This document shows positions 5,051 through 59,662 of a DNA stretch of 64,000 nt, in pieces. The DNA lies in IMG/VR virus record IMGVR_UViG_3300006874_000001, positions 479-64,478 of that record; one strand, given 5' to 3'. The notes beneath the pieces were generated by a model. That model did no database searches. It was not told where the DNA came from and was given only the letters and a program-made list of their open reading frames with translations. Source of the stretch: a virus (Duplodnaviria > Caudoviricetes). Numbering within the stretch: the first letter of the stretch is position 1; each line of letters opens with the position of its first letter. The position numbers and the translations under genes are program-made.

Positions 5051-5259
5051 TCTACCTTGTTCTTAGCTAACAACAACTTGATCTCCTGGATGTCTTTCAG
5101 CAACTGCTTGACGTCATCCTTAAATTCTTTATTGTCAGCTTCCAAGGTGTGAACTCTTGAGCTAAGTTTATTGTAATCTGCTTGAAACTTCAACCACCCG
5201 CCTACAAGAGTACTAGCCACTACTAGAAATTCGAAGTGAGATAGGTATTCTTGCATCAT
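5047..5259 (-). CDS. Small TM plus coiled-coil protein, possibly lysis-associated
   Basis: N-terminal hydrophobic segment and heptad-rich C-terminus. Confidence 0.6.
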   Translation of the reverse strand: MMQEYLSHFEFLVVASTLVGGWLKFQADYNKLSSRVHTLEADNKEFKDDVKQLLKDIQEIKLLLAKNKVE

Positions 5260-24300: not shown

Positions 24301-26532
24301 AGCAAGTCTAACCTCAGCAGTTCCTCCTGATGACGGGGCGTCGGCTCTAGATACATTGTAGTCGCCTGTTTCGATGCTATCGTATAGCCATTCGCCTGTC
24401 CCCCAGTTCTGCTCAAACATAAAGTCAACCTCTGCTTTGTTCAACAGGGCGTATCCGATAGGAGCTCCATCTACTTGGTTGTACTCTGAGAAATCCCCTC
24501 CGCCTGCAGTGCCTCCAATCTCCGCGGTACCGAGGAGCTCAGACTTTCTCCCGATACCCATGACAAGCTTTCCAGTGGACTCTCTATCATAGAACCTATC
24601 AAAATTCTGATACCCCTGGTCAATAGACATGGTGGGGATGATGTCGGCAGAGACAAGCTCAAAATTCCCTAGGCCGATTGCTTCAAAATTCGTAACTCCA
24701 GATAAAGCTGCAGCCAGAGCGTTAGCAACGCGTTGAGGGCTGTTCTCTTGTTCAATGGTCTTTAGCGTAACCGAGAAGCTAAGCTGCCCGCCTGACCCAG
24801 CTGCTGGGATGATAAATGGGTTTGCAGCGCTAGTTCCTACAACAGCATCAAACGTCCTTCCGATATAGCTTTGTGAGCTTGTTTCCGCTGGCGGTCCATC
24901 TACAGTAGACCACCGAAGGCCCCTGATAACTCCCTCATTGTTTCCAAAGTAAGGGAAGTATTGCTGGCTGTCGTTTCCGTGGCCTGGAGCCCCTAAAAGA
25001 AACCCCTCCCCAGAAGCCTCTGGTGTTTGATACGTTTGATAGTGTGGGTCTAGGTTGTTCTGAGCAAACTGTTCAGTGTAAAAGAAGTTGTAGTTCCCTT
25101 CATCACCTCTAATTGCGTTTTGATGGTAAGAATTTCTTGCGTCGTAAAGGTGAAAGTTCTGTTGAGGAAGAACCTGAATTGTAAGGTTGATCAGAGTCTC
25201 TGGCTCAAGGTCTGGCACGCCAGAACAATCGATCTTATAGCTAGTGGCCTTGTTGAACTGGTGGCACGGCTGGCCGTTCGGAAGGAAGTTTGATCCAGGG
25301 ATCTCCCTGATGATATCAGTGACCTCGATTGTTCCTGAAACAAAGTCATCAGGACGCTCAGCAAAGATCAATGTTGAGGTGCAAGAGACTGGCTGCTCAT
25401 CAAATCCATCAACGTAGTTCCCATACATGAGTCGGTTATTGATAACCGCCTGTGCCTTTGCGATCTTAGGTAGCGCATCATACTGCTTGGCCACCTCGTT
25501 AGGATCGACTCCTGTAACAACCCTATCGTTGTAGAACCTGTAGATCAGTTCGTTTGCTGTATTGTTGGCTACATCGGCACCGTTATAGATTGTTGTTGTG
25601 TTGTCGTTGTAAGTGACTACAATGTTTTCATCCTTCTTGAACTCGTCAATAGCGAAGAAAAATCCATCGTTACCCTCTCTGGCAAGCAACCTGATCTTCT
25701 CGATCTCATCTCTGTTCTGAATGTTAGTATCAAAGTCGATCTCCAGAACATTATTCGCCGTGTAGTCAACCACCTCTTGAGCCCCTTGCTTGACAATAAC
25801 TGGGGGAAACATGATGTCAGAGTATGGCGAGATAGCCGTCTCAACTCCGTCCTTATAGATCAGCTGATACGCAAACTGAAATCCTTTCGTGTTTACGAAG
25901 TTGCTGCTTGATCTACTAGAGTCGCCTGTAAACCTAGCCCCCAAGGTCTTGAGACCTAGCTTTGGGCAGGCAGTGATGAAGTCTGTTTCGTTAGGCCCCT
26001 CACCGAGTGGCGCGTCATCCAAGAGGCATCTGAAGACATTCAGCTTCTTTGGCTCACTTCTTCCATCAGTGAAGTACAAGATACAGTCCTTCTCGTATCT
26101 CTCATCGCCAGACACATCTGTCCTGTGGTTGATGTACACGACATCACCCTTGACGTATCCAAACTCATCGAAATTGAACTTCGTAGAGGTGAACACCTTT
26201 CTGACATACCCAGCAGTACCGTTAGGCAGGTTTCCGTATGGGTCGTAAACGTACACTCCGTGCTCGGCAGTGACAGAGCTGTAAAGGAACATGTAGATTA
26301 CCTTCAGCCTCTCGTCTGTCACAGCGCCGATAACCTTTCCTACTCCCTGGCCCGTAGGCGTGAGGTACGGGATGGCTTCGTTTCCTCTTGCCGCCTTGAT
26401 CACCCCCTCGTTACCTGTCTCTCCTTCTGAGCTGGTAATCAGTATGTTAAGGGCGTCAATCAGTCCTGTATTGGGTATAAGCCTTTCGTCAGCCGACTTA
26501 TTCAGCTTCTTTGGTGTGATTTTATCCCTCAT
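18370..26532 (-). CDS. Tail muzzle/stabilization protein with a large C-terminal adhesin-like extension
   Basis: N-terminal LNKSADERL...DALNI, YFTDG..EPKKLN, NRLMYGNYVDG, FGIVYYDERGR and GGYDP. These are followed by an Ig-like domain, six GCxxxxAxNY repeats and EF-hand-like loops. Confidence 0.8.
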   Translation of the reverse strand: MRDKITPKKLNKSADERLIPNTGLIDALNILITSSEGETGNEGVIKAARGNEAIPYLTPTGQGVGKVIGAVTDERLKVIYMFLYSSVTAEHGVYVYDPYGNLPNGTAGYVRKVFTSTKFNFDEFGYVKGDVVYINHRTDVSGDERYEKDCILYFTDGRSEPKKLNVFRCLLDDAPLGEGPNETDFITACPKLGLKTLGARFTGDSSRSSSNFVNTKGFQFAYQLIYKDGVETAISPYSDIMFPPVIVKQGAQEVVDYTANNVLEIDFDTNIQNRDEIEKIRLLAREGNDGFFFAIDEFKKDENIVVTYNDNTTTIYNGADVANNTANELIYRFYNDRVVTGVDPNEVAKQYDALPKIAKAQAVINNRLMYGNYVDGFDEQPVSCTSTLIFAERPDDFVSGTIEVTDIIREIPGSNFLPNGQPCHQFNKATSYKIDCSGVPDLEPETLINLTIQVLPQQNFHLYDARNSYHQNAIRGDEGNYNFFYTEQFAQNNLDPHYQTYQTPEASGEGFLLGAPGHGNDSQQYFPYFGNNEGVIRGLRWSTVDGPPAETSSQSYIGRTFDAVVGTSAANPFIIPAAGSGGQLSFSVTLKTIEQENSPQRVANALAAALSGVTNFEAIGLGNFELVSADIIPTMSIDQGYQNFDRFYDRESTGKLVMGIGRKSELLGTAEIGGTAGGGDFSEYNQVDGAPIGYALLNKAEVDFMFEQNWGTGEWLYDSIETGDYNVSRADAPSSGGTAEVRLAVKDISDIELSTCMRRLDTRSLTMTFQDGSFPYQSAIPFTNNGDFAVYDNSPWFILNNSLLSQPSFSLDQYQSSLPPALSPNGGRDSLKRYLDVADGGDYAYLADDINFTLFRYADPEIRELSTNVKQLSWPDCALNVQTQVDYLGSTIDLDVDNETPGMDLFLNKYIDAGSNTGTVNGIEVTTTTFNGPHEFVQICHRPNKAEASRQNFACLHSIYPSDNFRFACGRATINQNVGNGANDGYVGLGIQGLDGQPKPNQDNLDYYNNTRFKFSLLDGAGGPGGLRRIDEGANSIFGSISYFSTIPRLVNTVNNATIQDGVFVQVGAGTFNDNEHGVSMTGVFWNGNIHSTEFCGYGVAKVAAKNLNETGNQNGVTLNQNGFLPLVQASYTTARSQDAFFMPGIIPYPYITLTNFGADDVGTTCLQTNGDPADPWTPPDAPAIYRPLLAFRDIQFYDVQDTWQDNTVTRFDAGFTKIRIYNRRNGATQAESSSFNSIIDAGDPKDRTFKTNAFHDFGIVYYDERGRHGFVNPATTVYVPGYSDTERGSNEGKGKVEIKLDFSDTVAPPWATNYKLVYAPNSTVESFVQHMAGGAYLAAGADAGGSSVIYVSLNYLQESTISYTSAFGARGPEGELNLYKYKSGDRLRVISYAQGDERVYPNKIDFDVLEVKNFGPFENPLWPETENRAPNWLQGQFLVLRNNPLAGGFSYEDVNQDQHFWGDNCLIEIYSPAKKKSETAVYYEIPDQSYTPAGADYLPFVQNGVLYPSELTVTKGDTWWRPIAMNIRKKQTGNEDVYAINVTPSGLVDVIRDTDPEAPAGTNPSVPNFLPVTAESMTASDLIDGDSSFIGRPNAYLPGAKESRREATITYSDFNNPEATKIKYSSFNYALSNYKDLNEEFGGIDYMMNESGDILVIQNERVSMVPASKTLFSDTSGANTVVASTNVLGTARTFGLRAGCDGNPESVAVTPENAVFFAHKTLGKIYKYQPGGGVTTISDKNMAAFFRRAFEDALKTSSMSGYSDIRIPGGYDPLTKEYLITIKDVPDDVVGGDDGGPTETAIYGCTDPTALNYNPFATVDDGSCEYEEVVEGCDQINLSFDPSSFSFGSNSLTEDQVDADGNPNVEYNVSVVVTNTGDGVATITDVAFNGVTYSNDFSLFFFTSPSPTPDVIGQTIAPGESETLILRWTPSAEYTIGEAAQLTIAASNDDGCSKTTDFVGISGSVSIPSSDTNTPPRYVKVYESGQSADTAPFAQPIGTGQWDGFFYIYYDNIVETIGFPAVGQVLENPVYFSTDPPYNSNNNNRTFTKTLFIETSGILPSENVKIIFGAAPDAGDPIPVGAPMVASENIDGAFLSGETEIVLDESILSQTQDALGFSQGGIQLQTLTCKDLTLTYNFADDKSGSESSGFGRILPGTNVWPAGAETNDEWYASTNSNALEKLSVTNDLRWTQTNTSFVTIQCPSDVATNFSTSNGEASRDITYIQELTATTKYNETNYGNVRNTPALIRQWCSLPECFEYDPVEGETTTPVIGLWTNPLYQNFMDFTNVQPEGNGLGHPETKLGPAPFKTAYGANWYNASPEVFSVITDRLYKMQKNRDCGGVAGCTIETACNYNPDATWNDGSCTFPDPDYDCDGNFTGIITGCTNSNATNYNPAATEDDGSCIISGCTNPAADNYDPTATQDDGSCIVFGCTDPTATNYNSQATNDDGSCEYPAGGCPAAFPCAMDDDGNGIVNAQDVSGALTAAVNGYVNDGFNEDGPRWGAFRSKWTAFANCTIPEIIAYFDTTGDGALNFSEDLPGLMSAFNDACIADNFTISDEIYDCTGNPGFGDFPNICSLLDGNEITLQKVLEMYSTATDGVYDNPNAIDFDGDGVATSNDRNVALELVGLTTDEAFLQQCEGYNPPSGFTPTPDGDVKTDSVTTKKQYPLCEDFPEGDVSCGCMDPAADNYDPMARAHSQSLCSYSEKQDSRETTTTKS
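19165..19500 (-). repeat. Four tandem GCTxxxAxNYxxxATxxDGSC repeats (coding)
   Basis: Visible in the translation; two more copies lie near 21055-21125 and 18415-18490. Confidence 0.9.
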
Positions 26533-39735: not shown

Positions 39736-40160
39736 TATACTTGCTCACGGATGTTTGTGTTCAAGTTGAAGGATCCTCTAAGGAACGTCGTGTAAGTATC
39801 GATCCCTGTTGTGCTTGGGATTCTGTATTGAATTTCGTAATTGTAAACGCCAGACTTAATTCTACTCATCACCTGTGAAGAGGCGTTAAAAGTAGCATTG
39901 CCGCTGTCGTCAATGACAGTGTCCTCGAATGTGTTCTCAGATCCGCTTACGTTCGGCGTAGACAAAACGATGCGCTGTGGAGTAGACCCTCTAGCAGGCG
40001 TAGCTTGCTTGACAATAAAAAAGAACTCATAATTCAAGGTGTCTAGCGTGATCGCAGTACCTGCAGAGTCCTTCAATGTAACTGTAAGTGAGAAGCTGTC
40101 ACCGCGTCTGGCAGTGATGTTTAGAGCCTCGCTAACATCAAGATTTACGTTACTGGCCAT
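39735..40160 (-). CDS. Fibre-anchoring protein, BppU-N-like
   Basis: RGDSFSLTV...GVYNYEIQ...FLRGSF. Confidence 0.6.
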
Positions 40161-42624
40161 TATTCAGCATTTGATTGAAGATTCCACTCATGATATCACC
40201 TGTTTCTTCCTTGGCAGGAACCTCTTGAAGCTCACCTCTCATTCCATCTCTTTGCGAGATGAGTTTGCTTTGTTCCACGGCTTGCTTCTTTACTCTTTCG
40301 TCTTTTCTATCGTCTTTCTCTTTTTCGACATCAAGCTTTGACTGCTTGTCGCTGTCTAGCTTTTGAATCATCGCGTTAGCTCTGATCATCTCAATCTCTC
40401 TGTTAAACTCGTGCTGCATTTGAGCCATCTTCATGTCTAGCTCTGCCTTGAGCTGAACCTTCTGAAGTTCTCCTTGAGCAAGAGCTTGAATTTCTTGCAT
40501 CTTTGCTTCAGCCTTGGCGGCTTCTGCTTGCTGAGCAGCTTGCCCTTGAGCTTGAATCTCCTGCATTTTAGACTCTTGCAGCTTTTTCATACGCTTCTTT
40601 CTTCGAAGCACAAGAAGTCTTTCTGCCTGGTTGATGTCTTTCATATCTCGAATAGCCAAGGCGTCTTCAAGATCGATCTCCTTCTGAGCCAGGGATGCCT
40701 GGATATTCTGCTCTAGAAACGCCTTTTCAGTCTCCTCCATTTCCTTCACTACCTGAACACCGAAGTTGTACATCGGAAGGTCTCCAAAGGAAGACAGAAC
40801 CCTCATGTTTTCTTTTCCAATCGCATTCTCATAGGTTGAGAAGATGACTGACTCTGAAGGTAGGATTTGAAGGCATTTCACGACATCTTCGCATACCTTT
40901 TTGTAAAGGATCATCGCGGCGTTTGTGATGTCGTAAATGGCGTTGTTTCCAGCGTTGATTGCTTGCTCCTGAACCCCCACCAAGGCATCCCCTTTTGGTG
41001 ATGACGCATCCATGGCTTCATTGATACCAGTTGTATCTCTGATCATGGTTAGGTAGTGATTGTAGAGTCGAATTAGCTCATTGATATTCCTGATGCTATT
41101 GCCAATCTCTCTGACAGGAGGGTTTTGGAATCCTCCCTCTGGATTCTTGCTTCTGTAGTAGAAGACACCAGTCTGCTCGTAGATATCATGAAGGTCGAGA
41201 GGCTGAAGCTCTCCGCCTTTTCCTAGCTGTACGTTCTCCAGACCTTCAATGTCGATGATTAGTCCGTCTGGCTTTGCTTTAGCTACGGCTTGCTGAATCT
41301 TCAAGTGCGTGAGCTGAAGCATGTCTGCAAACCCGATGCAGCTGTCAACCATAGACTTAGGCATCATGTCTTGCAAGTTGGTTGCAATGACAGAGTACGA
41401 GGTTCTAGCTTTGGTGAGGTCGTGGACGTTCTTTGGAACGTTCATAGCCCTTCCGTACCCAAACAGGTAGTCTTTGGTTCCAAGGACGTAAGAACCCTTG
41501 TAAACCGTCTTCATCTCCATCTTGTGAGGCTTTCTAGCGTACACAGAGTTTTCTTTCTCCTTGTAAGAGAAACCCTTGTAGTAGAAACCAGAACCACCGA
41601 ATCGGTTCTCTTTCTCCTCAAAGTAGATTGTGTCTGTAGCGATAAACTCAAAGTCCAACACGTCTACCAGGTACTCATCATACCCGAAATGGGTTCTCCC
41701 TGTGATCGTGTTGTACGTAGACTTGCCGTATTCAGCTGAGTTGTTACCGTGCTTGTTTTGGTACTGCTTTGCGATCTTAGCGTACTGCTCTTCAGTAAGC
41801 TCGTCTCCCGCCAGTCTCTTCAGCTCGTTAATAGGGATTGTCTTGACATGACCGCCATAGATCAGGTCTTCAAAGTTTGGGTCTTCGGTTCTGCTGTGTA
41901 CAAACTTCTTTGGATCGACGTAGTTGATGCTAATCCCGTAGTTTGGGTCGTTGTATCTCTGAACAACGGCAATCCCAAGAGTAGCGAGGTCGTTAACGCA
42001 TCTTCTGAACGTGTTATCGTTGAAGTTGCTCCAGGACAGCGTCATGTTTGTCGCAATCTGTGCTGCGATCTCAGCGTCTGTCTTGATGTTCGTGTCCAGC
42101 AGGATCTCCGCCTCTTCAAGAGTCTCAGGAAGTGCCTCAGGGTCCTGATCAAGCACAACCCCAGTCTTTTGCTTCAGAGTAGCAAGCTTTTCTCTAGCTT
42201 GAACCTGCATCTTGACCTTGTTCTTTTCCTTGTTCTTCTGAGAAGAAGAAAGAGGGTCAATGGCCTCAAGATTTGGGTAGGGGTTCCTTGAAAGGATCTT
42301 GTTGACTACAATGCGAACAAACTTCGGCAAAATAGGTACAGGCGTGTAGTCGATGTTCATCAAGCTGCCGTCACCTGCGTTTGGATCCATGGTGTTGAGC
42401 AGACGCTTGTAGATGTTCGTGTCCTGGATGCCGTTGGCATACATCCTGCACCTGTCAAATACTCTTTGCCTCTCGCCGTGCAGAGAGTTGCTTTCTTGCA
42501 TCTTCCCCCACTGCTTTTCGATGGCTTTTGCGTACTTGAGCCCGTACTCCTTCCCCTCCTTTACTTCGGTGGGTGCCAATGGGTCAGGGAATCCTCCCTT
42601 GATGTCCTTCTCTGCCTTATACAT
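40150..42624 (-). CDS. Portal protein
   Basis: Downstream of TerL; YGLKYAKAIE, DYTPVPILPKFV, TGINEA.D and a Q/E-rich coiled-coil tail. ATG at 42624 is preferred. Confidence 0.88.
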   Translation of the reverse strand: MYKAEKDIKGGFPDPLAPTEVKEGKEYGLKYAKAIEKQWGKMQESNSLHGERQRVFDRCRMYANGIQDTNIYKRLLNTMDPNAGDGSLMNIDYTPVPILPKFVRIVVNKILSRNPYPNLEAIDPLSSSQKNKEKNKVKMQVQAREKLATLKQKTGVVLDQDPEALPETLEEAEILLDTNIKTDAEIAAQIATNMTLSWSNFNDNTFRRCVNDLATLGIAVVQRYNDPNYGISINYVDPKKFVHSRTEDPNFEDLIYGGHVKTIPINELKRLAGDELTEEQYAKIAKQYQNKHGNNSAEYGKSTYNTITGRTHFGYDEYLVDVLDFEFIATDTIYFEEKENRFGGSGFYYKGFSYKEKENSVYARKPHKMEMKTVYKGSYVLGTKDYLFGYGRAMNVPKNVHDLTKARTSYSVIATNLQDMMPKSMVDSCIGFADMLQLTHLKIQQAVAKAKPDGLIIDIEGLENVQLGKGGELQPLDLHDIYEQTGVFYYRSKNPEGGFQNPPVREIGNSIRNINELIRLYNHYLTMIRDTTGINEAMDASSPKGDALVGVQEQAINAGNNAIYDITNAAMILYKKVCEDVVKCLQILPSESVIFSTYENAIGKENMRVLSSFGDLPMYNFGVQVVKEMEETEKAFLEQNIQASLAQKEIDLEDALAIRDMKDINQAERLLVLRRKKRMKKLQESKMQEIQAQGQAAQQAEAAKAEAKMQEIQALAQGELQKVQLKAELDMKMAQMQHEFNREIEMIRANAMIQKLDSDKQSKLDVEKEKDDRKDERVKKQAVEQSKLISQRDGMRGELQEVPAKEETGDIMSGIFNQMLNNGQ

Positions 42625-42630
42625 TTGCTG

Positions 42631-42638
42631 CAAATATA
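42631..42638 (-). promoter_or_regulatory. Late promoter -7 element TATATTTG
   Basis: 6 nt before the portal ATG. Confidence 0.6.
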
Positions 42639-42642
42639 GCAA

Positions 42643-44751
42643 TTAACCAATTACTCTGTATCGCCTTAGGAATTTCTTCGTGCCGAAGTCAGCTGTCTTC
42701 TTTGGCTTTGCCTTTTGAGCGGCCAGAAGAGCCATCCCAGAGCTTATGGTAAGGTCAAACTTTGTTCTTTTGTCAATCTTAAATCCAATCCAGTCTTCTA
42801 GCGTTTTGTTGAAGTACATCTTCCCCATCAGTCCCGAGTCATAATTTACCCCAACGTGGTCATGAATATACGTCTCAATGGCTTGAGCGTGAGCTTGGAT
42901 CACATCCTGAGAGTTCGAAGGTATTCCCTTGGTCTTGCTTTTCATGCTAGAAGCAGAGCTAAGGTGCTCTGGTCTATCCATTAGGTAGCCATCGTAACCT
43001 CTTGATTCAAAGTATCTTGCGATACCGTACTTATTGTTTTCAATTAAGATAGGGTACCCGTAAAAGAAGGCGCACATCAACACGTCTTCGTAGAAGATCT
43101 TAGCTAGGTCTGGCCTCGATGCGTACTCCACCACAAACATGTTTGACGGGTGCTGCATATGGAACTTATTGAACATGTGCAAGGCGCCTTTCGACCCTCT
43201 TCCGTCAACAGTGGCGTCAAGGTCGTAGGAGTCAACGCCTCCACAACCCCAGTCGTGAGGCGCTACCTTTTTGCCCCTGTCATATTTCAACACATTCCTG
43301 TATTCTGCAGGAGGCATCCAGGCTACCTTGAACCTTCCATTAGGCGTTGGACTGAAGATGACTTCTTTGTCTTTCTCCTTCCAGACGAAGTTGCCTGTAA
43401 CTACTGGATTGGGGAATAAGTCGTCGTTGTGCTCGATCTGCTCATAGATCTTTCCGATGTTGAACAGGCTCCCCTCAATGCTGTCTCTGAATGCCTCGTC
43501 TTCGGTAAAGGGGAACTGACGAACAACCTCATTCAGCTCTGACGGGTCGTCTTTGAGCGCTTTTCTTTCGTTTTTGAGGTACGTCTTCGCCCCAATAGTA
43601 ACCAGCTCGCCATCAAGACCATCCACAGGGCTATCAGGATCTTCCACGATTGGATTTCCATACTTGTCAAAAAATCCTTCGAGTGACTCGTATGCAGGCA
43701 TGAATAGGCGATATAGTCCAGTGCGTGTTCTACCATTTTCATTCCTCATCTTCGGATCGGAGTCCTTCCACAACTCCTTGTACTCTTGACCACCTTTGTC
43801 CATCGGGTTGACGGTGCTTCCTACCAGAGCTTTTCCGACGATTTTTCGCCCGACGATCAAACACGTCCGTTGAATCCTCCAGGCGTCTCTTATGTCTGTA
43901 GGTTTTTCCCATTTTCCTGCCTCATCAAGGTACATGATGTGAAGTTTCTCACCATCGTACGCGTTGTTTGTTGTGTTTTTCCAGTTGATAACAGTATTCA
44001 AAGCCTCACCCTTCTGTGAAGTCTTGTTCTTCTTTGTGATTCGCTTTGATGGCTCTCTGAACGCAAGCTCCATACGAGGGTTGGTAGTACCATCCTGGAT
44101 AGGCTTGAAGAAGAAAGGGTAGCTTCTGAACATGAACACCACCTTCTTCATGAAGATGTTCTCTTGAGCGTCTTTACCAGTCTTTGATTGTATCCCTAGA
44201 AGTTTGTCTTTGACCTGCGTAGCCTCGTCAACAAGTACAGAGGAACAGATATTAGTATAGCCAGAACGGCGACACTTAGTATAAAGCTGACCGATACAAC
44301 GGGGATCAGCTTCGCACGCAGCCATGTGGATAAAGATTTCACGTTGGAACGCAAGATAGTCAGGATTCCCTACATCCATCCTGCTCCACTGTAGCATCAT
44401 GTAGTGCCTGCCCGTAATATATGTAGCGACACCATTGTTGAAAAACCAAAAGCCTTCACGCCTACGGCGAAACTCCTCTTCGATATACGGAGAAAACTTT
44501 TGTCTAAACTCCCTTGGCATCTCCCCCCACTCATCCATAGACTTAATCCTAGACAACTCCTCTGGCATAGGAATCCTCTGCCACATCTGCATGTCGTCTG
44601 GACGTCCATATCCGTGAATTTCCTCTTTGGGAGGCTGAGAGGGAAGTGCAATGAATAGCCCACCGAGTTCAAGAATCTCACCTTGCGTACCCTTGGGGCA
44701 AATTGAGACAACAAGCTCATCATAGCCCTCTATGTTCAGCAGAGTAGACAT
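42643..44751 (-). CDS. terL: Terminase large subunit
   Basis: KCRRSGYT (Walker A), YLDEAGKW (Walker B), VGST, and nuclease motifs GGVDSYD, LIENN and FDLTIS. Confidence 0.92.
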   Translation of the reverse strand: MSTLLNIEGYDELVVSICPKGTQGEILELGGLFIALPSQPPKEEIHGYGRPDDMQMWQRIPMPEELSRIKSMDEWGEMPREFRQKFSPYIEEEFRRRREGFWFFNNGVATYITGRHYMMLQWSRMDVGNPDYLAFQREIFIHMAACEADPRCIGQLYTKCRRSGYTNICSSVLVDEATQVKDKLLGIQSKTGKDAQENIFMKKVVFMFRSYPFFFKPIQDGTTNPRMELAFREPSKRITKKNKTSQKGEALNTVINWKNTTNNAYDGEKLHIMYLDEAGKWEKPTDIRDAWRIQRTCLIVGRKIVGKALVGSTVNPMDKGGQEYKELWKDSDPKMRNENGRTRTGLYRLFMPAYESLEGFFDKYGNPIVEDPDSPVDGLDGELVTIGAKTYLKNERKALKDDPSELNEVVRQFPFTEDEAFRDSIEGSLFNIGKIYEQIEHNDDLFPNPVVTGNFVWKEKDKEVIFSPTPNGRFKVAWMPPAEYRNVLKYDRGKKVAPHDWGCGGVDSYDLDATVDGRGSKGALHMFNKFHMQHPSNMFVVEYASRPDLAKIFYEDVLMCAFFYGYPILIENNKYGIARYFESRGYDGYLMDRPEHLSSASSMKSKTKGIPSNSQDVIQAHAQAIETYIHDHVGVNYDSGLMGKMYFNKTLEDWIGFKIDKRTKFDLTISSGMALLAAQKAKPKKTADFGTKKFLRRYRVIG

Positions 44752-44933: not shown

Positions 44934-44945
44934 GTCAATTCAATT

Positions 44946-45022
44946 TGGTACGCCTGACAGGATTCGAACCTGTGACCGTCTGCTTAGAAGGCAGATGCTC
45001 TATCCGACTGAGCTACAGGCGC
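44946..45022 (-). tRNA. tRNA-Arg(UCU)
   Basis: GCGCCTGTAGCTCAGTCGGATAGAGCATCTGCCTTCTAAGCAGACGGTCACAGGTTCGAATCCTGTCAGGCGTACCA folds as a full cloverleaf with encoded CCA. Confidence 0.95.
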
Positions 45023-45032
45023 ATAGTCAAAT

Positions 45033-45962
45033 TTACCTAATAAGAGTCACAAACCCTTGAATAGAAACAACTTTTGTTGATCTGAAGGTTTTTCCTTTGA
45101 TGGTCCAGGTGTAAACTCCGTCTGAAACGTAAGATAATCCACCCTCGCCAAACCACTTATCTGAAGGGTCTTCGCTCCACCAAACAACCTGACCCCATCT
45201 GTTGTAAACCTTACACTCCCACTCTAGCCAGCAGCTAGAAAGCGTAATGGGTCTCCAATAGTCGTTGATGTTGTCACCGTCTGGCGTAAAGACGTTTGGA
45301 ACGTGGATGCATGGGTCTTCACACGGGTCTCCCACTGGTCGTACAGGCCTGGTTGGTCTTACTGGGTCCACTGTGGTCGTGGTGTCTCCGTCTACTGGTT
45401 CTGGATCAACAGGGACAGGAGGTGGAGGGGGGTCGCAACCGCCGTCTAGTGAGAACTCCAACCAGTTGTTTGCAATGTCATCGTCTGGGTACGGGAATCC
45501 CCCAATACCAGGTTCCCCGAAAATGTCGTCGCTGTCATTGATCTGACTAACAGTTAGGATAACGCACTCCTCGAAGAAAGACCCCTCTTCCAGAGCCTCA
45601 TTCCAGCACTGTAGTGTTCCGCTTCCAGCCAAAGAAGTGTCATCTAGTATATTGAAAAGCACAGTGTCTCCAGCCTGAAGGATGTTGTCGCTACCCTCTC
45701 CAATGTCAAATCCTGGGAAGTCCAATGGGTACAGCAGGAGCATAAATTCGTCATCGCCAAAACAAGGCCATGGAGTGATCTCTAGCGGCGGGTTGAACCC
45801 TAGAGCGAGAATAAACTCACCAATGCTGTCTGCCTCTGTGCCACACTGTCCTCCGTTCACTGTGATCAATAGGTCTGTAGAGATAGGGTCAAAACCCAGG
45901 ATCTCAATGTCACACTGACCATACGAAATCAGAGGGATGAAGAACAGAAGCAGCTTTTTCAT
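45033..45962 (-). CDS. Secreted protein with type B T9SS C-terminal sorting domain (CHU_C, gliding-motility-associated)
   Basis: Signal peptide MKKLLLFFIPLISYG|Q, Pro-rich linker, and VPNVFTPDGDNIND...VYNRWGQVV...W.G...DGVYTW...GFVTLIR. Confidence 0.88.
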   Translation of the reverse strand: MKKLLLFFIPLISYGQCDIEILGFDPISTDLLITVNGGQCGTEADSIGEFILALGFNPPLEITPWPCFGDDEFMLLLYPLDFPGFDIGEGSDNILQAGDTVLFNILDDTSLAGSGTLQCWNEALEEGSFFEECVILTVSQINDSDDIFGEPGIGGFPYPDDDIANNWLEFSLDGGCDPPPPPVPVDPEPVDGDTTTTVDPVRPTRPVRPVGDPCEDPCIHVPNVFTPDGDNINDYWRPITLSSCWLEWECKVYNRWGQVVWWSEDPSDKWFGEGGLSYVSDGVYTWTIKGKTFRSTKVVSIQGFVTLIR

Positions 45963-47875
45963 TGTACGAAGATCTTCTTGGTTTTCGTGGCGCTCTTTTG
46001 AATGTAGATGCCTGGGGCTAGGTTCTCTAACGGTCCAGGGACTATCCTTCCAGACATGTCGTAGTAGACTGGTGAGGCATAGCTTTGATCGGTTTGGCTC
46101 GCGCCTTGCTCAGTGAGCTCAATGATTTCGGACACCTCTAAGCTAGTTTCTGCCGAAACAATGCAACCTGACTCCGCAAAGTAAGTCAGGAACTCAAGGA
46201 TGTCCATGACGTTTACCACGCCGTTTCCATCTAGGTCTGCGATGCACTCTCCTTCACACTGATAGTCACCGACAAGAATGGCAACGTCTTCCGCTCCAAC
46301 TACCCCGTCGTTGTCAAAATCTGCTGGGCACACATTAACCTCTTCCGTCTCCACGCAAAAATTAAACACTAGCTGGTTCCAGTCTCCAGAGACGTCTACA
46401 TCTAAAGGGCCTCCATTCAGCCAAACCAAGACTTCGCCTCCGTAAGGGATACCGTCTCCTCCTGTGTCATAGATGATCAGGTTGTAACAGCCGTTAGGTA
46501 GGCACGTCTCGTAGCTTCTAGTGGTAATTCCAGCAGGCCAGTTCCCGTCCTCAATGACAGGGTTCTTGCTGCCATCAGGCAAAAGTACCCAGTCTGTCTC
46601 TGATGCAAAGAAGTCGCTGGTAAAGTCCATCTCCCATAGCGCACCTGGCTCGTAAGCAACGCTACCAGACGCTGTGTTGTTAGCTTCGTACTGATCGCTA
46701 CCAGAGAACAGCGTCACAGAGAAGTCTCCCTGCAGTTCCACGCCACTGAACAAGACTTCGTAGGACTGCCCGTAAGCGATGTCGTTAAGCGTGTAGTTGT
46801 ATGACGCCCCGCTAGCTGTTAGGGTAACCGTTGCTACTGGGGTGGCGAGTGGGCCGACGCCTGTAACAGTTACTGTTACGTCCTGCTCGGGTAAGCAGAA
46901 TGGCGTTTTGTAGTCCACGTTGGATACAGCAACATCGTAGTCTACAGGAGGTACGCATGCAAGGTTGTCATTCCATAGGTCATACCTTCCACCCAACAAG
47001 CAGTCATGCATGCGCTCGGCCTGACCAGTAGTGTACATGTTTCTGCACTGCTCACCAGTGTAATCCATGTAGTTTTCTGTGATTGCGTCAGGACAAGATG
47101 GCTGGCTACAGAAGTAGTTTGTAGTGGTTACAGGGGTGTCACAAATCTTATCCCCTTGAGTCTCACAGTTGGTCTCTTGAGCGCAAGAGAAGGTGTTGGC
47201 AAAGGTGTGATCGATAGTCAGGTAGTGACCAAGCTCGTGAACGAATGTCTTACCAAGATTGAAAGTAGAGACAATCATCTTGTTCGAAAGCATGACCACT
47301 CCGTCACGACAGTCATTCGTTGGGCCTAGGTAGGCATACCCTTGAATACCGCCTCCGCCGTTATTCCCGTCGATCTCCGTCACAATGTAGATGTTGACGT
47401 ACCTGTCTACATCCCAACAGGCGTAGCTCTTCATCGCTAGATCATCCATTCCAGACTGAGTGGCGCTTGGAGAAACACCATCTTGCACGTACTCTGGCTC
47501 ACCTGACAGGTCGTGACGAGTGATCCCTGTTGTAGGGTTTCCATCAGGGTCTCTCTGTGCAAGGCAGAAGTCAATCTTGGTGTCAACTCCGCTGCCATCC
47601 CCAACAGATCCTGGGACTTTTCGAAACATCTCGTTGGCTCGACCAAGCATCTCGATGACCTGCTCGTCAGTGATGTTTGCACCCTCCCCAATGGCTTGGC
47701 CAGTATGCATGATGTGAAAAACGATAGGGAGAGTCGCCCCCTCAACGTCGTTCAAATCGACATTAGATCGGCTTGAAAGCCCCATTGTTTTGACATTGCT
47801 AGACAGAACAACGCACTCCTGAGAGTGCGTCATGAGGCTGATTGTCAGCAAGATAGCTGTTAAAATTCGTTTCAT
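45959..47875 (-). CDS. Secreted M43 (pappalysin/ulilysin-like) zinc metalloprotease with putative type A T9SS CTD
   Basis: Signal peptide ending THS|Q; LPIVFHI, HELGHYLTIDH, ICDTP and NYMDY (Met-turn); two dockerin-like EF-hands; C-terminal YYDMSGRIV...LAPGIYI...KKIFVQ. Confidence 0.9.
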   Translation of the reverse strand: MKRILTAILLTISLMTHSQECVVLSSNVKTMGLSSRSNVDLNDVEGATLPIVFHIMHTGQAIGEGANITDEQVIEMLGRANEMFRKVPGSVGDGSGVDTKIDFCLAQRDPDGNPTTGITRHDLSGEPEYVQDGVSPSATQSGMDDLAMKSYACWDVDRYVNIYIVTEIDGNNGGGGIQGYAYLGPTNDCRDGVVMLSNKMIVSTFNLGKTFVHELGHYLTIDHTFANTFSCAQETNCETQGDKICDTPVTTTNYFCSQPSCPDAITENYMDYTGEQCRNMYTTGQAERMHDCLLGGRYDLWNDNLACVPPVDYDVAVSNVDYKTPFCLPEQDVTVTVTGVGPLATPVATVTLTASGASYNYTLNDIAYGQSYEVLFSGVELQGDFSVTLFSGSDQYEANNTASGSVAYEPGALWEMDFTSDFFASETDWVLLPDGSKNPVIEDGNWPAGITTRSYETCLPNGCYNLIIYDTGGDGIPYGGEVLVWLNGGPLDVDVSGDWNQLVFNFCVETEEVNVCPADFDNDGVVGAEDVAILVGDYQCEGECIADLDGNGVVNVMDILEFLTYFAESGCIVSAETSLEVSEIIELTEQGASQTDQSYASPVYYDMSGRIVPGPLENLAPGIYIQKSATKTKKIFVQ

Positions 47876-48058
47876 TTAGTCTTCGTATTCTTCGTTCCAG
47901 GAGTCTTCCCAAAAGTAATGAATACCGTCGTTACCGTTCTGCCCGATTATGTTAACCCTGTTGTTGAGGAATACTTCGTCTTGCCACCACTTGAATTTAC
48001 TTTGAGTATCGCTCTGCAAATCCTCCTGTGTAGTCTTTTGCTTCTTCGATTCCGCCAT
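47876..48058 (-). CDS. Small hypothetical protein
   Basis: IIGQNGNDGIHY motif; start uncertain because it overlaps the upstream gene. Confidence 0.45.
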   Translation of the reverse strand: MAESKKQKTTQEDLQSDTQSKFKWWQDEVFLNNRVNIIGQNGNDGIHYFWEDSWNEEYED

Positions 48059-48284
48059 TTGTTTGTAGGTCTTTGATCATTTGGTCCAATCGCTGTCTTT
48101 CAACGATCAGTTCTTTGCAATCTGTTGCTGTTTGCTTGATAGACTGAAGCTCTGCTTTTCTCGCGCTGCCGTTGATTTCTGGGTCAACAGGCTTCTTGAC
48201 CTCGTCAATCATGTTGTCGATGGCTATCTCCATAGACTTCATAAGTCTTTCAGCAGCATCAATCGTTGTGAACTTCTTCCGCAT
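47997..48284 (-). CDS. Conserved helical protein, candidate terminase small subunit
   Basis: Helical with a C-terminal GFAER motif; the TerS role is inferred from position only. Confidence 0.45.
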   Translation of the reverse strand: MRKKFTTIDAAERLMKSMEIAIDNMIDEVKKPVDPEINGSARKAELQSIKQTATDCKELIVERQRLDQMIKDLQTNGGIEEAKDYTGGFAERYSK

Positions 48285-48864
48285 ACATCAAGTCTTCAGC
48301 ACGGGTCCGATAGTACTCTTTCCCGTCGATTTTGATTCTGTAGTCTCTGTTCTCTTTGAACCCTACGACGTCACCAACCTTCAATCCAAGATCCTCAATC
48401 CAAGGAGCCGTAAAAGCGACACGACCCTTTGTTGGTAGGCCCTGTTTAAGTTCGACAACTTCGACAACATCTGATTTTGTTTTTAGCTCTTCCTGCTCTA
48501 CTGGCTCCAAGAGAGTCCATCCAGCAAGAGGTCTGATCTCACCATCTTTGTTCTTATACCCGATAGCCTGGTTGTTGATGGTGTGCTCTGGATCGAAACG
48601 AACAAGGTAGTGCTTGTCGTGACCAGTAAGAACCTGACCCTCGTTCATAACCACCAAATGATGGAAGTACAAGGTGTCACCAGCTTCCACACCAGTGTCA
48701 TGCTTCATTGGGGCGCACACAACAGGCCCTTCAGTGACTCTGTGCTCAAACTGACTGCCCTCGAAGTTTCGAGTGTCGATGAACAATTCCAAACCACTTT
48801 CCGTGGTGATAGTGTCGTTGATAGGCTTTTCAAGCTCAACGACGAATAGATCCAATGTCTTCAT
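48259..48864 (-). CDS. GroES/Cpn10-like protein with two tandem domains
   Basis: PLAGWTLLEP...KTKS...KGRV...LKVGDVVGF...IDGKEYYRTRAEDL, with a similar N-terminal half (TTESGL, GPVV, VEAGDTLYF). Confidence 0.7.
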   Translation of the reverse strand: MKTLDLFVVELEKPINDTITTESGLELFIDTRNFEGSQFEHRVTEGPVVCAPMKHDTGVEAGDTLYFHHLVVMNEGQVLTGHDKHYLVRFDPEHTINNQAIGYKNKDGEIRPLAGWTLLEPVEQEELKTKSDVVEVVELKQGLPTKGRVAFTAPWIEDLGLKVGDVVGFKENRDYRIKIDGKEYYRTRAEDLMYAEEVHND

Positions 48865-49242: not shown

Positions 49243-49243
49243 T

Positions 49244-49556: not shown

Positions 49557-49979
49557 ATGCCAAAAAGTAAAGTCTCAAAGAGCAAGAAGTTCAGAGAGTT
49601 CTCGCGTCTACCCGAAAGATACGTAAAAAATAACTACCTCAAAAGTCTGAGGAAAGCTCTCATTTCAACACAAGAACAACACCGTGTGTTCGAAAAGGAG
49701 CTTATGTTTATGTTATGGGCGTACGACCTAGAGTTCTGGACTCTAGACTATGCAGCTGAGCAATACGGGTACAGCAAGAAAAAGATCGGGGAGAGGATTG
49801 TATACCCTCTTATGAGTGAAGGGTTGGTGTACAAGCACTTTGACAAGCTTACACCGTCAGATACGTACGAGGACCACCTCTTTAGAGATGAAACCAAATT
49901 TAACTACAGAGTGAGATATGCTCTAACTCAGAAGGCTAGGCTTCTGGTCCAGCGTTTTTACTCGAAGATGACTTCGTAG
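49557..49979 (+). CDS. Putative winged-helix DNA-binding protein
   Basis: ELMFMLWAY...PLMSEGLVYK...RYALTQKARLLV resembles a MarR-like wing; only plus-strand gene in the late region. Confidence 0.6.
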   Translation: MPKSKVSKSKKFREFSRLPERYVKNNYLKSLRKALISTQEQHRVFEKELMFMLWAYDLEFWTLDYAAEQYGYSKKKIGERIVYPLMSEGLVYKHFDKLTPSDTYEDHLFRDETKFNYRVRYALTQKARLLVQRFYSKMTS

Positions 49980-50428
49980 TACGTCTTGCCCTGATCGTCT
50001 CTACAAGCTTTGAGACAGCGACCACGATTATGGCCATCGTGAACGTAAGACACGTGAACCCAACTAGGATTGTCTTCTGTACCAAACTCCCAAACCACTT
50101 GATCAAACTCCAGATTCTCCCTAATGTAGTGGAAGATTTGAGCGTTTGTAACACCTCCGAATACGTCTGCGTCAAGGTCGAGTGCTCTTCCTTCCATATG
50201 TTGACTACGCTTCGCGCCACCGATAGCACGGTTGAGCTCAGGTCCACGATAGCCTGACGACACATATACAGGAACTCCGAAATGGTCGCGCAAAGGTTGA
50301 AAAATGTGTTCTGCAACTTTCTTAAGATTTTCAGTGGCCCACTCATCTGGTGTATTGTCGATGCCGAGTCTGTCGGCTGTCTTGCTTCTGATGCACTCTT
50401 GCAGCGTCAGGTTCTTTGATAGTTTCAT
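49958..50428 (-). CDS. Peptidase M15 family endolysin
   Basis: SSGYR...LN..IGG...SQH..GRALD...WVHVS. Confidence 0.88.
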   Translation of the reverse strand: MKLSKNLTLQECIRSKTADRLGIDNTPDEWATENLKKVAEHIFQPLRDHFGVPVYVSSGYRGPELNRAIGGAKRSQHMEGRALDLDADVFGGVTNAQIFHYIRENLEFDQVVWEFGTEDNPSWVHVSYVHDGHNRGRCLKACRDDQGKTYYEVIFE

Positions 50429-59605: not shown

Positions 59606-59662
59606 TGTTTGGCCTTGAGGGGCTTGTGTGACTGAAACGTCAGTCCGCCCCTCTTCACTTTC

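Follow-up and report, generated by a model that had tools for sequence, protein, structure and literature searches.

[quoted passage not shown] With this cassette, the phage probably remodels the surface of the infected cell. Export of both proteins through the host T9SS had been proposed from a sequence-only reading. It stands as the best reading of the comparative evidence, except for the type A C-terminal domain (CTD) that was then given to the protease.

Genomic context of the cassette

The window is the whole stretch of 64,000 nucleotides that was analysed. The phage record is 64,478 bp long, carries direct terminal repeats and has a completeness of 100%. Genes for TerL, portal, endolysin and holin were all found in it. 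The source is a complete ~64.5-kb podophage genome, from an apparently non-integrating phage of Bacteroidota. Its TerL is 40-48% identical to those of Flavobacterium and Cellulophaga phages, and the isolated relatives infect hosts of these two genera. The pair and its neighbours are the following.

42643..44751, minus strand: TerL (phrog_6681, E=1.3e-204); backbone, downstream flank of site A
44946..45022, minus strand: tRNA-Arg(TCT), found with ARAGORN; backbone neighbour
45033..45962, minus strand: gene 2, T9SS type B cargo (the "partner"), 309 aa; ORF, PF13585
45959..47875, minus strand: gene 1, secreted M43B (pappalysin/ulilysin/mirolysin-like) zinc metalloprotease, 638 aa; ORF, PF05572
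47997..48864, minus strand: 95-aa ORF and GroES-like gene (phrog_13932 5.1e-44, PF00166); backbone, upstream flank of site A

The ORFs of genes 1 and 2 overlap by 4 nt (ATGA), on the strand of TerL and the portal gene (phrog_6547, E=3e-189). This agrees with the earlier description of two overlapping late-strand genes. The pair had also been placed, together with the tRNA, between a candidate TerS and TerL. The tRNA and TerL are in place, but no TerS was identified. The candidate TerS upstream is unsupported; that region holds the GroES-like gene and two small ORFs without a family. The tRNA belongs to the backbone. It was rejected as a part of the cassette because it keeps the orientation of TerL in loci L009 and L028 despite an inverted cassette. 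Likewise, the GroES-like gene/95-aa ORF is kept beside TerL in cassette-free relatives.

Two families were searched across the whole phage record. Neither PorP/SprF (PF11751, at E≤1) nor a tyrosine integrase (PF00589) was found, in line with the reported absence of T9SS machinery and integrase.

Gene 1 encodes a predicted M43 protease

The features of gene 1 are listed from its N-terminus.

47822..47875, minus strand: signal peptide (residues 1-18, MKRILTAILLTISLMTHS followed by QEC, the Q-E-C being conserved); read by eye, pattern conserved in the family
46976..47758, minus strand: catalytic domain (~residues 40-300), with HELGHYLTIDH and Met270
46352..46933, minus strand: two beta-sandwich domains (~residues 315-406 and 412-508); strands of the AlphaFold model, pLDDT 79-91
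46163..46330, minus strand: dockerin-like module with two Ca-loop-like repeats (residues 516-571); NF041540 and PF00404 borderline
45962..46078, minus strand: C-terminal tail (residues 600-638), remnant of a type A CTD, of which it keeps the C-terminal half; hhalign and model

Gene 1 matches Peptidase_M43 (PF05572) with 63.2 bits, against a cut-off of 23. The zinc site fits HExxHxxxxxH and the Met-turn is present. H213, E214, H217, H223 and M270 are invariant among 52 family members. The motif HEXXHXXGXXH usually has a glycine; gene 1 has threonine at that place. Sequence matches in the PDB are ulilysin (1.2e-23) and mirolysin (2.1e-20), and the fold matches the same two enzymes (mirolysin 7od0 and ulilysin 2j83, E=1.7e-14, probability 1.00, TMt 0.67-0.68). 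The pLDDT of the catalytic-domain model is mostly 85-93, with the exception of a Cys-rich loop (224-265). These matches indicate that the protease is an intact M43B enzyme of the pappalysin type, and the earlier assignment to M43 holds.

The family comprises 306 proteins with E≤1e-3, out of 8000 candidates scored. For the beta-sandwich region, PF07705 (CARDB) is precomputed in some of the relatives. M43 proteases are common in Flavobacteriales, where 220 of 301 sampled genomes have a match at E≤1e-5, often in several copies. Cysteine 21 of gene 1 is kept in at least 90% of the family. A role for it as a cysteine switch would be a guess; the PDB alignments begin at residues 43-48.

Dockerin-like EF-hands had been described after the beta-sandwiches, and this is partly supported. 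D519, D521, G524, D530, D547 and D558 are invariant, and the module has 13 D/E and no K/R. A homologue (L218) passes the PF00404 cut-off with 28.1 bits, and 20 of the 52 relatives match NF041540 at E≤1. However, the scores of gene 1 itself fall below the cut-offs (NF041540, 28.2 bits against 29; PF00404, 16.7-18.9 bits against 22.9).

The tail of gene 1 is a partial type A CTD

A complete type A CTD is an Ig-like beta-sandwich of about 70-80 aa with seven strands. Such a domain had been assigned to the protease, and here the sequence-only reading failed. TIGR04183 and Pfam give no CTD match on gene 1 at E≤10, whether the whole protein or the last 60 or 100 aa are searched. A six-frame scan of the genome likewise gives no hit. 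The model of the tail has three short strands only, preceded by a disordered linker (572-599). In hhalign, the tail aligns with four bacterial type A CTDs (probability 95.4%); the alignment spans 32-80 of the 85 template columns and lacks the "PNP" half. A full type A CTD was rejected on these negative searches, the three strands and the half-length alignment. Instead, the profile and the model indicate that the tail is a remnant of ~38 aa, homologous only to the C-terminal half of the domain. Eight of its residues (D606, G609, R610, L619, G622, Y624, I625 and K634) are kept in at least 90% of the family. TIGR04183 is weak in the relatives, with 11 of 52 at E≤1 and a best E=4e-4.

The nearest scanned homologues of the same architecture are from Flavobacteriales (L158, L160, L161 and L162; 624-688 aa). 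Like gene 1, they have a signal peptide, an M43 domain and a beta-sandwich region, and they are 28-44% identical to it over query residues about 35-507. In contrast, all four end in a full type A CTD (30.8-56.1 bits; TIGR04183 model positions 1-72), where the phage family has the dockerin-like module, a linker and the half CTD. We propose that gene 1 descends from Flavobacteriales proteases that were type A cargo of the T9SS. Since it fails all type A CTD models and has three strands only, the protease alone might remain periplasmic.

Gene 2 encodes a type B cargo protein

The features of gene 2 are, from the N-terminus:

45918..45962, minus strand: signal peptide (residues 1-15, MKKLLLFFIPLISYG followed by QCD); read by eye, "GQCD" conserved in the family
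45438..45917, minus strand: acidic Cys-bearing beta-sandwich N-domain (residues 16-175); small phage-associated family
45309..45437, minus strand: Pro-rich stalk (residues 176-218), 14 Pro in 43 aa
45036..45308, minus strand: type B T9SS CTD (residues 219-309); PF13585 and TIGR04131, pLDDT 80-95

The type B CTD, described before as clear, is confirmed by the profiles. PF13585 (CHU_C) gives 51.5 bits against a cut-off of 27, over model positions 1-85 of 86. TIGR04131 has a cut-off of 35; the whole protein stays just below it with 32.5 bits, the last 90 aa alone reach 35.8 bits, and 49 of 49 family members match this profile. Bacterial relatives of this domain are nearly all from Bacteroidota.

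By inspection, the N-terminus consists of MKK, a hydrophobic run, and SYG before the Q. The 49 relatives keep this pattern, with the exception of a few whose gene calls are truncated or extended. Both proteins of the pair show what had been read as a Sec signal peptide followed by glutamine (K/R, hydrophobic run, small residue, Gln), and the pattern, judged by eye, is conserved in both families.

With 32 D/E, no K/R, five Cys and a pI of about 4.05, the N-domain fits the acidic, Cys-containing domain described earlier, and the proline content of the stalk fits as well. The stalk is modelled with pLDDT <50 at residues 185-209. Only 25 relatives of the N-domain occur among 1.84 billion representatives, and 8 of the 10 scanned carry CHU_C. 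Its nearest Atlas cluster is 100% viral, and none of the best 80 bacterial genome matches covers it. The whole protein has 100 relatives with E≤1e-3, and 86 of them match well beyond the CTD. A Cys-containing repeat is common to longer partner homologues and to a 2720-aa protein of the window.

The two genes are paired and under purifying selection

A survey of related phages for the cassette, with its dN/dS, had been suggested. It recovered 67 partner and 140 M43 relatives in viral contigs, and the pair is co-inherited. The partner lies directly downstream in 42 of 61 M43-anchored loci, mostly with the 4-nt overlap, and M43 lies directly upstream in 48 of 67 partner-anchored loci. For M43, 34 of 1081 pairs were usable and give a median dN/dS of 0.062; for the partner, 51 of 1953 were usable, with a median of 0.056. 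These values indicate that both genes are under strong purifying selection.

The partner is absent beside 16 of the 61 M43 genes, and M43 is absent beside 19 of the 67 partner genes. So each gene can presumably function alone, and an obligate complex of protease and partner is unlikely. A partner-less M43 (L168) still has the dockerin-like module, which makes a docking of this module to the partner less likely.

Among the 61 M43 genes, 34 have the tail and the partner, 16 the tail only, 9 the partner only, 2 a fused type B CTD and none neither, a pattern confounded by relatedness, as the tail-less forms make essentially one clade. The natural fusions of M43 to a type B CTD are in L229 and L230. 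That of L229 was verified as a single ORF, with 63.6 bits for PF05572 and 56.3 bits for PF13585.

The cassette is mobile

Phages with a TerL 75-88% identical have the cassette at two sites (A and B) and in both orientations. Isolated relatives of the phage lack it. The shared DNA begins 30-62 nt upstream of M43 and ends at the stop of the partner. Within these limits, identity is 84-89%, compared with about 75% for the flanks. The site labels interleave in clades with support of 99-100. This distribution indicates that the pair is a self-contained, horizontally mobile accessory cassette, or "moron", moving as a unit.

Within 120 nt upstream, 19 of 47 copies have the motif TAnnTTTG and the other 28 lack it; in the background, 146 of 4599 windows (3.2%) have it. 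At site B, a hairpin and a T-run often precede the motif. Opposite to the late operon are 17 copies at site B and 2 inverted copies at site A, of the 47. The window has one match before gene 1:

47910..47917, minus strand: TACTTTTG, fits the promoter motif (-7) of Bacteroidota, 34 nt upstream of the start of gene 1

It sits within a small ORF (47876..48058) that is seemingly conserved in L010-L012, and it may be a coincidental match. The window shows no excess of sigma-70-type promoters or terminators.

Proposed mechanism

Both products would leave the cytoplasm of the infected cell by Sec. The gene 2 product, an acidic and disulfide-stabilised beta-sandwich on a Pro-rich stalk, would pass through the host T9SS by its type B CTD. 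It would then be held at the cell surface on a PorP/SprF-like shuttle of the host, as an "orphan" type B substrate. According to the available text of PMC12618676, type B CTDs need PorP/SprF-like shuttles, orphan substrates use one common orphan shuttle, and recognition is highly specific. PorP-like proteins are also described to anchor type B cargo (PMC9143113, available text). Since the phage has no PorP/SprF gene, gene 2 would be an orphan substrate that relies on the shuttle of the host; given the reported specificity, we take this use as an assumption. The gene 1 product would exit with or beside its partner, guided by the half-CTD that remains in its tail, or else carried by the partner or docked to it. 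The protease would then cut proteins at or near the surface of the infected cell. We infer the timing of expression, the dependence on Sec and T9SS, the physical association, the substrates and the benefit.

The likeliest payoff, though a tentative one, is that phage receptors displayed by the T9SS are destroyed or masked. In this way, superinfection would be curbed and fewer progeny would be lost on debris. Gliding-motility gene mutations are found in phage-resistant F. psychrophilum, as the accessible part of PMC9804748 reports. A more elaborate effector system, which we think improbable, would have the partner occupy the host shuttle, compete with the type B adhesins of the host (class of SprB) and dock the M43 protease, which would bind by its dockerin-like module or its half-CTD. 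The protease would then strip the displayed receptors, and superinfection, gliding and re-adsorption to debris would be blocked. If true, it would be the first receptor-destroying or receptor-masking system acting through the type IX pathway, and a natural probe of the specificity between type B CTDs and shuttles.

Comparison with known systems

T9SS cargo of phages is already in print, on computational evidence, with type A CTDs and, in the available text of the reports, with no protease/partner pair (PMC7468147; de Jonge 2019, PMC6949934). Bellas et al. 2020 (Nat Commun, PMC7468147) described such genes in "Cryophage" and proposed a hijack of the host T9SS. The likeness lies in a Bacteroidota phage, T9SS sorting domains and variable genome islands. 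However, the cryophage cargo in that text consists of an endoglucanase, a GH39 and a PA14 protein with type A CTDs, whereas the full CTD of our cassette is type B and needs a specific PorP/SprF shuttle. The protease/partner pair, the truncated type A CTD and the discrete mobile unit in many viral contigs are also unlike that cargo. What appears new is the pair as a mobile moron, with a protease and a type B partner.

In both sequence and fold, the gene 1 catalytic domain best matches ulilysin and the mirolysin of Tannerella forsythia (MEROPS M43B), and it shares their zinc site and Met-turn. Mirolysin is made as a zymogen and is a type A cargo of the T9SS. Identity to the two enzymes is 25-29% in the fold alignments, and the phage enzyme differs in its extra two beta-sandwiches, dockerin-like module and half-CTD tail.

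For gene 2, the closest likeness is to the orphans of Flavobacterium johnsoniae. [quoted passage not shown] Like gene 2, they have a type B CTD without an adjacent porP/sprF-like gene; they are surface-localised, and their secretion depends on a shuttle encoded elsewhere. In contrast, gene 2 is phage-encoded, its shuttle would be that of the host, and its passenger is from a phage-associated family.

The cassette also resembles lambda bor/lom and T5 Llp in being present or absent among related phages. These are non-essential morons, often self-transcribed, encoding exported envelope proteins that alter receptor availability or the cell surface. They use Sec/Lol lipoprotein routes in Proteobacteria, whereas the cassette would be addressed to the Bacteroidota-specific T9SS and includes a predicted enzyme.

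Alternative explanations

An accessory role in lysis or release is possible but unlikely. Here, a Sec-exported protease and a surface protein would act alongside holin and endolysin at the end of infection, weakening envelope proteins (outer-membrane tethers, surface layers) or freeing progeny from debris. The protease lacks a full CTD, so it may be periplasmic. The cassette or its parts adjoin lysis genes in several unrelated contexts. Site B is next to a holin (phrog_3427, 2.9e-22) and two small ORFs, and an M15 endolysin lies 2 kb from site A. A different phage lineage has 17 loci with the partner gene but no M43. In L045, the one read in detail, the partner follows genes for an M15-like endolysin and for a small membrane protein; 6 further loci have an endolysin-like match just upstream of it. 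An M15 endolysin follows the partner-less M43s of L168 and L173, and an endolysin-like gene is downstream of the pair in L015, L029 and L041. Nevertheless, unrelated morons often insert at module boundaries by lysis genes, which makes adjacency a weak argument. Isolated relatives without the cassette still lyse their hosts. The complete and conserved type B CTD indicates the cell surface rather than the periplasm, and many copies have the host-type promoter motif and run opposite to the late operon.

Slightly less probable still is nutrient scavenging, in which a surface-tethered extracellular protease would be added to the T9SS secretome of the host and supply peptides or amino acids for virion production. 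The frequency of M43 in Flavobacteriales and the type A cargo status of all four scanned nearest homologues agree with it, and the available text of Bellas 2020 (PMC7468147) proposes "additional enzymatic capabilities" for phage T9SS cargo. However, the gain in a short lytic cycle is doubtful, as hosts already encode several such proteases. Scavenging also leaves unexplained the phage-restricted partner domain and the lone partners.

A particle-borne depolymerase, with the Ig-like or CTD-like domains as capsid or tail decoration, is very unlikely. The cassette lies on the structural strand near TerL, beta-sandwich domains are frequent on virions, and the Cys-containing repeat is shared with the 2720-aa protein. 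Against this, the conserved, cleavable-looking Sec signal peptides would take the proteins out of the cytoplasm, where virions assemble. There is also no match to a PHROG structural family, position and orientation vary, and isolated relatives lack both genes.

A chimeric assembly or a recently captured, decaying host fragment, for which the slightly higher GC of the cassette (0.50 vs 0.45-0.48 nearby) would speak, is excluded for practical purposes: the genome is complete with terminal repeats; independent contigs without errors, taken from runs that were not flagged as the source, span the p95-to-M43 junction (X17, X19, X22) and the partner-to-tRNA junction (X17, X19); L010-L012 and L065 have the same arrangement; both families are large and phage-borne, with dN/dS about 0.06; the best bacterial M43 match is just 40-44% identical, over the catalytic domain; and the gene 2 N-domain was not found among the bacterial genomes searched. 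Of the grounds on which the sequence-only reading said it could fall, these two do not apply, and the type B CTD profile passes.

Implications

We return to the reading of a cassette addressed to the host T9SS. The type A CTD of the protease seems to have decayed to a half domain in a lineage that offers a type B partner or fusion. This leads one to ask how small an export signal can be. The partner would provide a natural "orphan" type B signal read by host shuttles, useful for dissecting shuttle specificity (PMC12618676, available text). With two small genes and cultured relatives that lack the cassette, the system is tractable.

Proteins displayed by the T9SS serve Bacteroidota in gliding, polymer degradation and virulence. 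Mutations in the T9SS machinery have been linked to phage resistance (PMC9804748, accessible part). A widespread and conserved cassette aimed at this system would show that phages manipulate the T9SS surface from within.

Genomic context of the cassette

The IMG/VR virus record that contains the window is 64,478 bp long, has direct terminal repeats and is rated 100% complete; the window omits its first 478 bases. Its minus strand carries a long block of structural and packaging genes. [quoted passage not shown] Genes 1 and 2, together the cassette, overlap by ATGA.

5256..5699, minus strand, holin
40150..42642, minus strand, portal (phrog_6547, E=3e-189)
42643..44751, minus strand, TerL (phrog_6681, E=1.3e-204)
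44946..45022, minus strand, tRNA-Arg(TCT)
45033..45962, minus strand, gene 2 (309 aa)
45959..47875, minus strand, gene 1 (638 aa)
48259..48864, minus strand, GroES-like gene
49958..50428, minus strand, M15 endolysin

TerL is 40-48% identical to those of Flavobacterium 'elemo' podophages, Cellulophaga phages and one uncultured podovirus. No tyrosine integrase was found in the phage record, in line with the sequence-only reading, which saw no integrase. That reading had also placed a candidate TerS upstream of the pair. The ORFs there are GroES-like or family-less, and the TerS identity was dropped after family searches. PHROGs holds no family for the protein of gene 1 or gene 2.

Giant ORFs of 3274 aa (5683..15507, minus strand) and 2720 aa (18370..26532, minus strand) lie within the structural block. 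A single plus-strand ORF of 140 aa (49557..49979) stands amid the minus-strand late block. It is 66-79% conserved in relatives, and family searches gave no match. Directly after the holin, 5047..5259 (minus strand) encodes a 70-aa protein that combines a coiled coil with a hydrophobic segment at its N-terminus; it may be a lysis accessory. A similar gene sits between M43 and endolysin in viral locus L173.

The protease and its C-terminal tail

Gene 1 matches PF05572 (Peptidase_M43) with 63.2 bits, against a cut-off of 23. Across 52 aligned relatives, residues H213, E214, H217, H223 and M270 never vary. The metalloprotease is intact, as first read. The closest solved structures by sequence are ulilysin (1.2e-23) and mirolysin (2.1e-20), and a fold search returned the same two at E=1.7e-14 (TMt 0.67-0.68). 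The PDB alignments begin at residues 43-48, beyond Cys21, which is no more than a conjectured cysteine switch. In the AlphaFold model (mean pLDDT 78), the catalytic domain is followed by two beta-sandwich domains (about 315-406 and 412-508). Next come a helical Ca-loop module (516-571) and a disordered linker (572-599); residues 600-638, here called the tail, form three short strands only.

Dockerin-like EF-hands had been proposed for this protein. The Ca-loop module does resemble a dockerin, but it scores slightly below both curated cut-offs. NF041540 matches 20 of the 52 relatives at E<=1, and one distant viral homologue passes PF00404.

The sequence-only reading had also given the protease a type-A-like C-terminal domain (CTD). 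Type A CTD models, TIGR04183 among them, did not match gene 1 even at E<=10, including when the C-terminus was searched in isolation; 11 of the 52 relatives match weakly. The last ~38 residues are nevertheless conserved: D606, G609, R610, L619, G622, Y624, I625 and K634 are each kept in at least 90% of members. Four Flavobacteriales M43 homologues carry a full TIGR04183 domain (30.8-56.1 bits, model positions 1-72). We compared their CTDs with 50 of the 52 phage sequences, as two lack the tail. hhalign aligned them with 95.4% probability, and phage residues 600-636 correspond to template columns 32-80 of 85 only. The first half of the type A CTD, with the 'PNP' strand, has no counterpart in the phage tail. 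Because only the C-terminal half is covered, we interpret the tail as a truncated descendant of a type A CTD and not as a type A CTD itself.

The partner and its passenger domain

Gene 2 matches PF13585 (CHU_C, the type B CTD) with 51.5 bits over model positions 1-85 of 86. TIGR04131 matches its last 90 aa with 35.8 bits, and it also matches 49 of 49 relatives; the clear type B CTD first noticed by eye thus stands. The passenger domain, a beta-sandwich of ~160 aa, has 32 acidic residues, no basic residues and 5 Cys; a stalk of 43 aa with 14 Pro comes after it. This composition agrees with the acidic Cys-containing domain and Pro-rich stalk described from the sequence.

The N-domain is rare: an exhaustive phmmer search of 1.84 billion representative proteins found 25 relatives. 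A C-terminal CHU_C is present in 8 of the 10 scanned, including forms of 561-1231 aa. A bacterial scan with one genome per species gave 528 relatives, and the best 80 are nearly all from Bacteroidota. These best 80 match the CTD only, from residue 167 at the earliest and with at most 44% identity, and none matches the N-domain. By structure, the nearest ESM Atlas cluster is a CHU_C cluster that is 100% viral. Other structure matches there are CARDB-like sandwiches only (query TM <=0.51), and the ESM Atlas feature search matched nothing usable. Among PDB folds, the model found only generic Ig/FN3-like sandwiches (TMq <=0.23), with no functional lead.

At residues about 1803-1832 and 2344-2474, the 2720-aa protein contains a repeat of ~25 aa with Cys residues, GC.DP.A.NY[ND]..AT.DDGSC.Y. 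In the longer partner homologues P0027 and P0033, 1-3 copies of this repeat (48-76% identity) replace the Pro-rich stalk; it is absent from the partner of the window. Low complexity alone was dropped as the cause of the stalk match to the 2720-aa protein, since the Cys-containing repeat is real. Its occurrence in the 2720-aa protein and in these homologues hints at a common ligand. Type B CTD matches are also present in LR745206.1 and LR756502.1 (uncultured phages of 635-642 kb), in up to three places per record.

Signal peptides

A Gln at +1 after the signal peptide is a Bacteroidota habit. Inspected by eye, both proteins start with 1-2 basic residues, a hydrophobic run, a small residue and Gln. 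The predicted cleavage contexts are THS|QEC in gene 1 and SYG|QCD in gene 2. This pattern, a Sec signal peptide then Gln as originally reported, is kept in both families. In some phages the two cassette proteins bear a near-identical unusual signal peptide, MF[KR]LNALWF...FFQLNEMFGQ (partner P0066; M43 proteins P0204 and P0213). It suggests duplication or conversion between the 5' ends of the two genes.

Authenticity and selection

The cassette is neither an artefact nor a recent host fragment. The stretch was located in 22 DNA sequencing runs, which belong to 16 studies; no RNA run with it was listed. Three runs not flagged as possible sources (X17, X19 and X22) contain error-free contigs across the 95-aa-ORF/M43 junction, and X17 and X19 have them across the partner/tRNA junction too. 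One contig of X1, a flagged possible source run, covers 44987-48432. Contig breaks fall only within the tRNA, a high-depth repeat. The bridging in independent runs argues against a chimeric assembly.

Each protein belongs to a large family with full-length members, on contigs that reach ~60-65 kb. A survey of related phages for the cassette and its dN/dS, proposed from the sequence, returned 67 partner-anchored loci in IMG/VR. We estimated dN/dS by NG86 for pairs with 0.05<dS<1.5. M43 shows a median of 0.062 (range 0.025-0.096; 34 of 1081 pairs) and the partner a median of 0.056 (range 0.018-0.934; 51 of 1953 pairs). An M43 match is present in 220 of 301 sampled Flavobacteriales genomes. Identity over the catalytic domain is no higher than 40-44% in the best of them, and no match reaches through the dockerin and tail. 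These low ratios, the phage families and the distant bacterial M43 proteins speak against a recent host fragment.

Linkage between the protease and type B signals

Of 140 relatives from the M43-anchored scan, 80 were retained, and in 61 of these the sequence continues for at least 600 nt past the M43 stop. The partner is adjacent in 42 of these 61, or 43 with a looser gap that adds the disrupted L210. A subclade of ~612-aa M43 proteins (11 loci) has no partner and adjoins an M15 endolysin. The order is reversed in L218, with a 632-aa CHU_C protein then M43. In L229 and L230, a single ORF of 951/960 aa contains both PF05572 (63.6 bits) and PF13585 (56.3 bits).

Table. Tail and type B signals at 61 M43 loci
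Tail plus partner: 34
Tail only: 16
Partner only: 9
Fused type B CTD: 2
Neither tail, partner nor fused CTD: 0

These counts are a pattern and not a statistical test, because the tail-less forms are essentially one clade. Complex prediction of the two mature proteins with both alignments gave an ipSAE of 0.00 in both runs, without controls, and weighs neither way.

Among larger viral contigs (88-152 kb), L220:3806-8046 has tandem M43 genes. L231:4001-9549, and also L232 and L235, carry M43, a small secreted protein (211 aa, type-A-like tail) and a 712-aa CHU_C protein.

Mobility and insertion sites

M43 lies directly upstream of the partner on the same strand in 48 of the 67 partner loci, and not in 19. 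We compared insertion sites in loci with the window's flanks and in five further records searched whole. Among these phages, whose TerL is 75-88% identical to that of the window, the cassette occupies two sites. Site A, from the 95-aa ORF to tRNA/TerL, holds it in the window, L010-L012 and L065, and inverted in L009 and L028. Site B, from a class II ribonucleotide reductase to the holin module, holds it in 18 loci, counted by script. Most relatives have the cassette at site B; the window has there an unrelated 201-aa ORF (DUF5872 and DUF6321; 4019..4624, minus strand). Site B resembles a hot spot of accessory-gene exchange.

The shared DNA is sharply bounded: L008 (site B) and L009 (site A, inverted) have in common only the DNA between a point 62 nt ahead of M43 and the stop of the partner gene, at 89% identity. 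L009 and L010 share a co-linear cassette at 84.5%, with the flanks (about 75%) inverted. We also built a quick ML tree from 41 distinct M43 proteins. Clades supported at 99-100 (SH-aLRT) mix copies from different sites, for example {window A, L065 A, L019 B}, {L010 A-direct, L009 A-inverted, L007/L008 B} and {L028 A-inverted, L027/L020/L022 B}. By the starred branches, the A-direct label must have arisen at least twice, and so must the A-inverted label. The cassette is a mobile unit. The tRNA was considered as a member and dropped: where the cassette is inverted, the tRNA keeps the orientation of TerL, and it is therefore part of the phage backbone. Isolated relatives lack both genes, and 50,697 phage records gave one weak M43 match and three CTD-only matches.

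In L062:3216-5902, the partner stands alone at site B, preceded by the beta and alpha genes of a class I-like ribonucleotide reductase; the window instead has a class II enzyme at 2042..3934. A stretch of ~85 nt just upstream of the cassette in L019 (3883-3967), perhaps a repeated regulatory element, is 76% identical to window 59662-59733, which lies far away in intergenic or early DNA.

Promoter motif

TAnnTTTG is the consensus of the -7 promoter motif of Bacteroidota. Of 47 copies, 19 have this motif in the 120 nt that precede M43, against a background of 146 of 4599 windows. It lies mostly 4-23 nt ahead of the chosen start codon, and at site B it comes after a GC hairpin and T-run. In loci without a complete upstream M43, 11 of 19 have it 4 nt ahead of the partner's start. 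The window's copy, 34 nt upstream of M43, may be chance, because it falls inside a small ORF whose end appears conserved in L010-L012; the cassette may be read with the late operon. A sigma-70-type scan of 44000-49500 gave no excess (promoter-like 3 against 6.0 expected, terminator-like 5 against 3.5).

Proposed role

Bellas et al. 2020 (PMC7468147) reported, from computation, type A T9SS sorting domains on proteins encoded by a phage of Bacteroidota. T9SS sorting-domain proteins in gut phage contigs are mentioned in a passage of de Jonge et al. 2019 (PMC6949934). The sequence-only reading knew of no characterised example. It holds for experiment, as we found no experimental study of phage-encoded T9SS cargo in the full-text literature searched, but computational mentions exist. 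A 2024 T9SS review, searched for phage, contains nothing on phage-encoded cargo, and the full-text literature searched gave no description of an M43/type B pair; supplementary gene lists may bear on both points. Such cargo is thus a known but barely explored kind. What is new here, relative to the literature searched, is the type B addressing, the protease/partner pair, the decayed type A CTD, and the demonstrable mobility and breadth.

Passages of PMC12618676 describe PorP/SprF-like shuttles that handle type B CTDs with high specificity, and an orphan shuttle, Fjoh_1677, common to three orphan F. johnsoniae substrates. Over-produced type B fusions were secreted there only if the shuttle was co-produced. 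PorP-like proteins anchor type B cargo, according to PMC9143113. No PorP/SprF gene was found in the phage record, consistent with the earlier statement that T9SS machinery is absent; therefore the partner would have to use a host shuttle and be carried by a PorP/SprF-like protein of the host. Since a type B CTD needs a shuttle that the phage lacks, we read the cassette as a putative phage device that addresses an acidic surface protein and an M43 protease via Sec and T9SS. These two routes would place both proteins on or outside the infected cell.

A role in lysis or release competes seriously with this reading, since in several lineages the cassette or parts of it are again found next to lysis genes. 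For a device that acts at the cell surface through T9SS, we infer that receptor destruction or masking would be the most attractive payoff, because phage-resistant F. psychrophilum has mutations in gliding-motility genes, as PMC9804748 reports.
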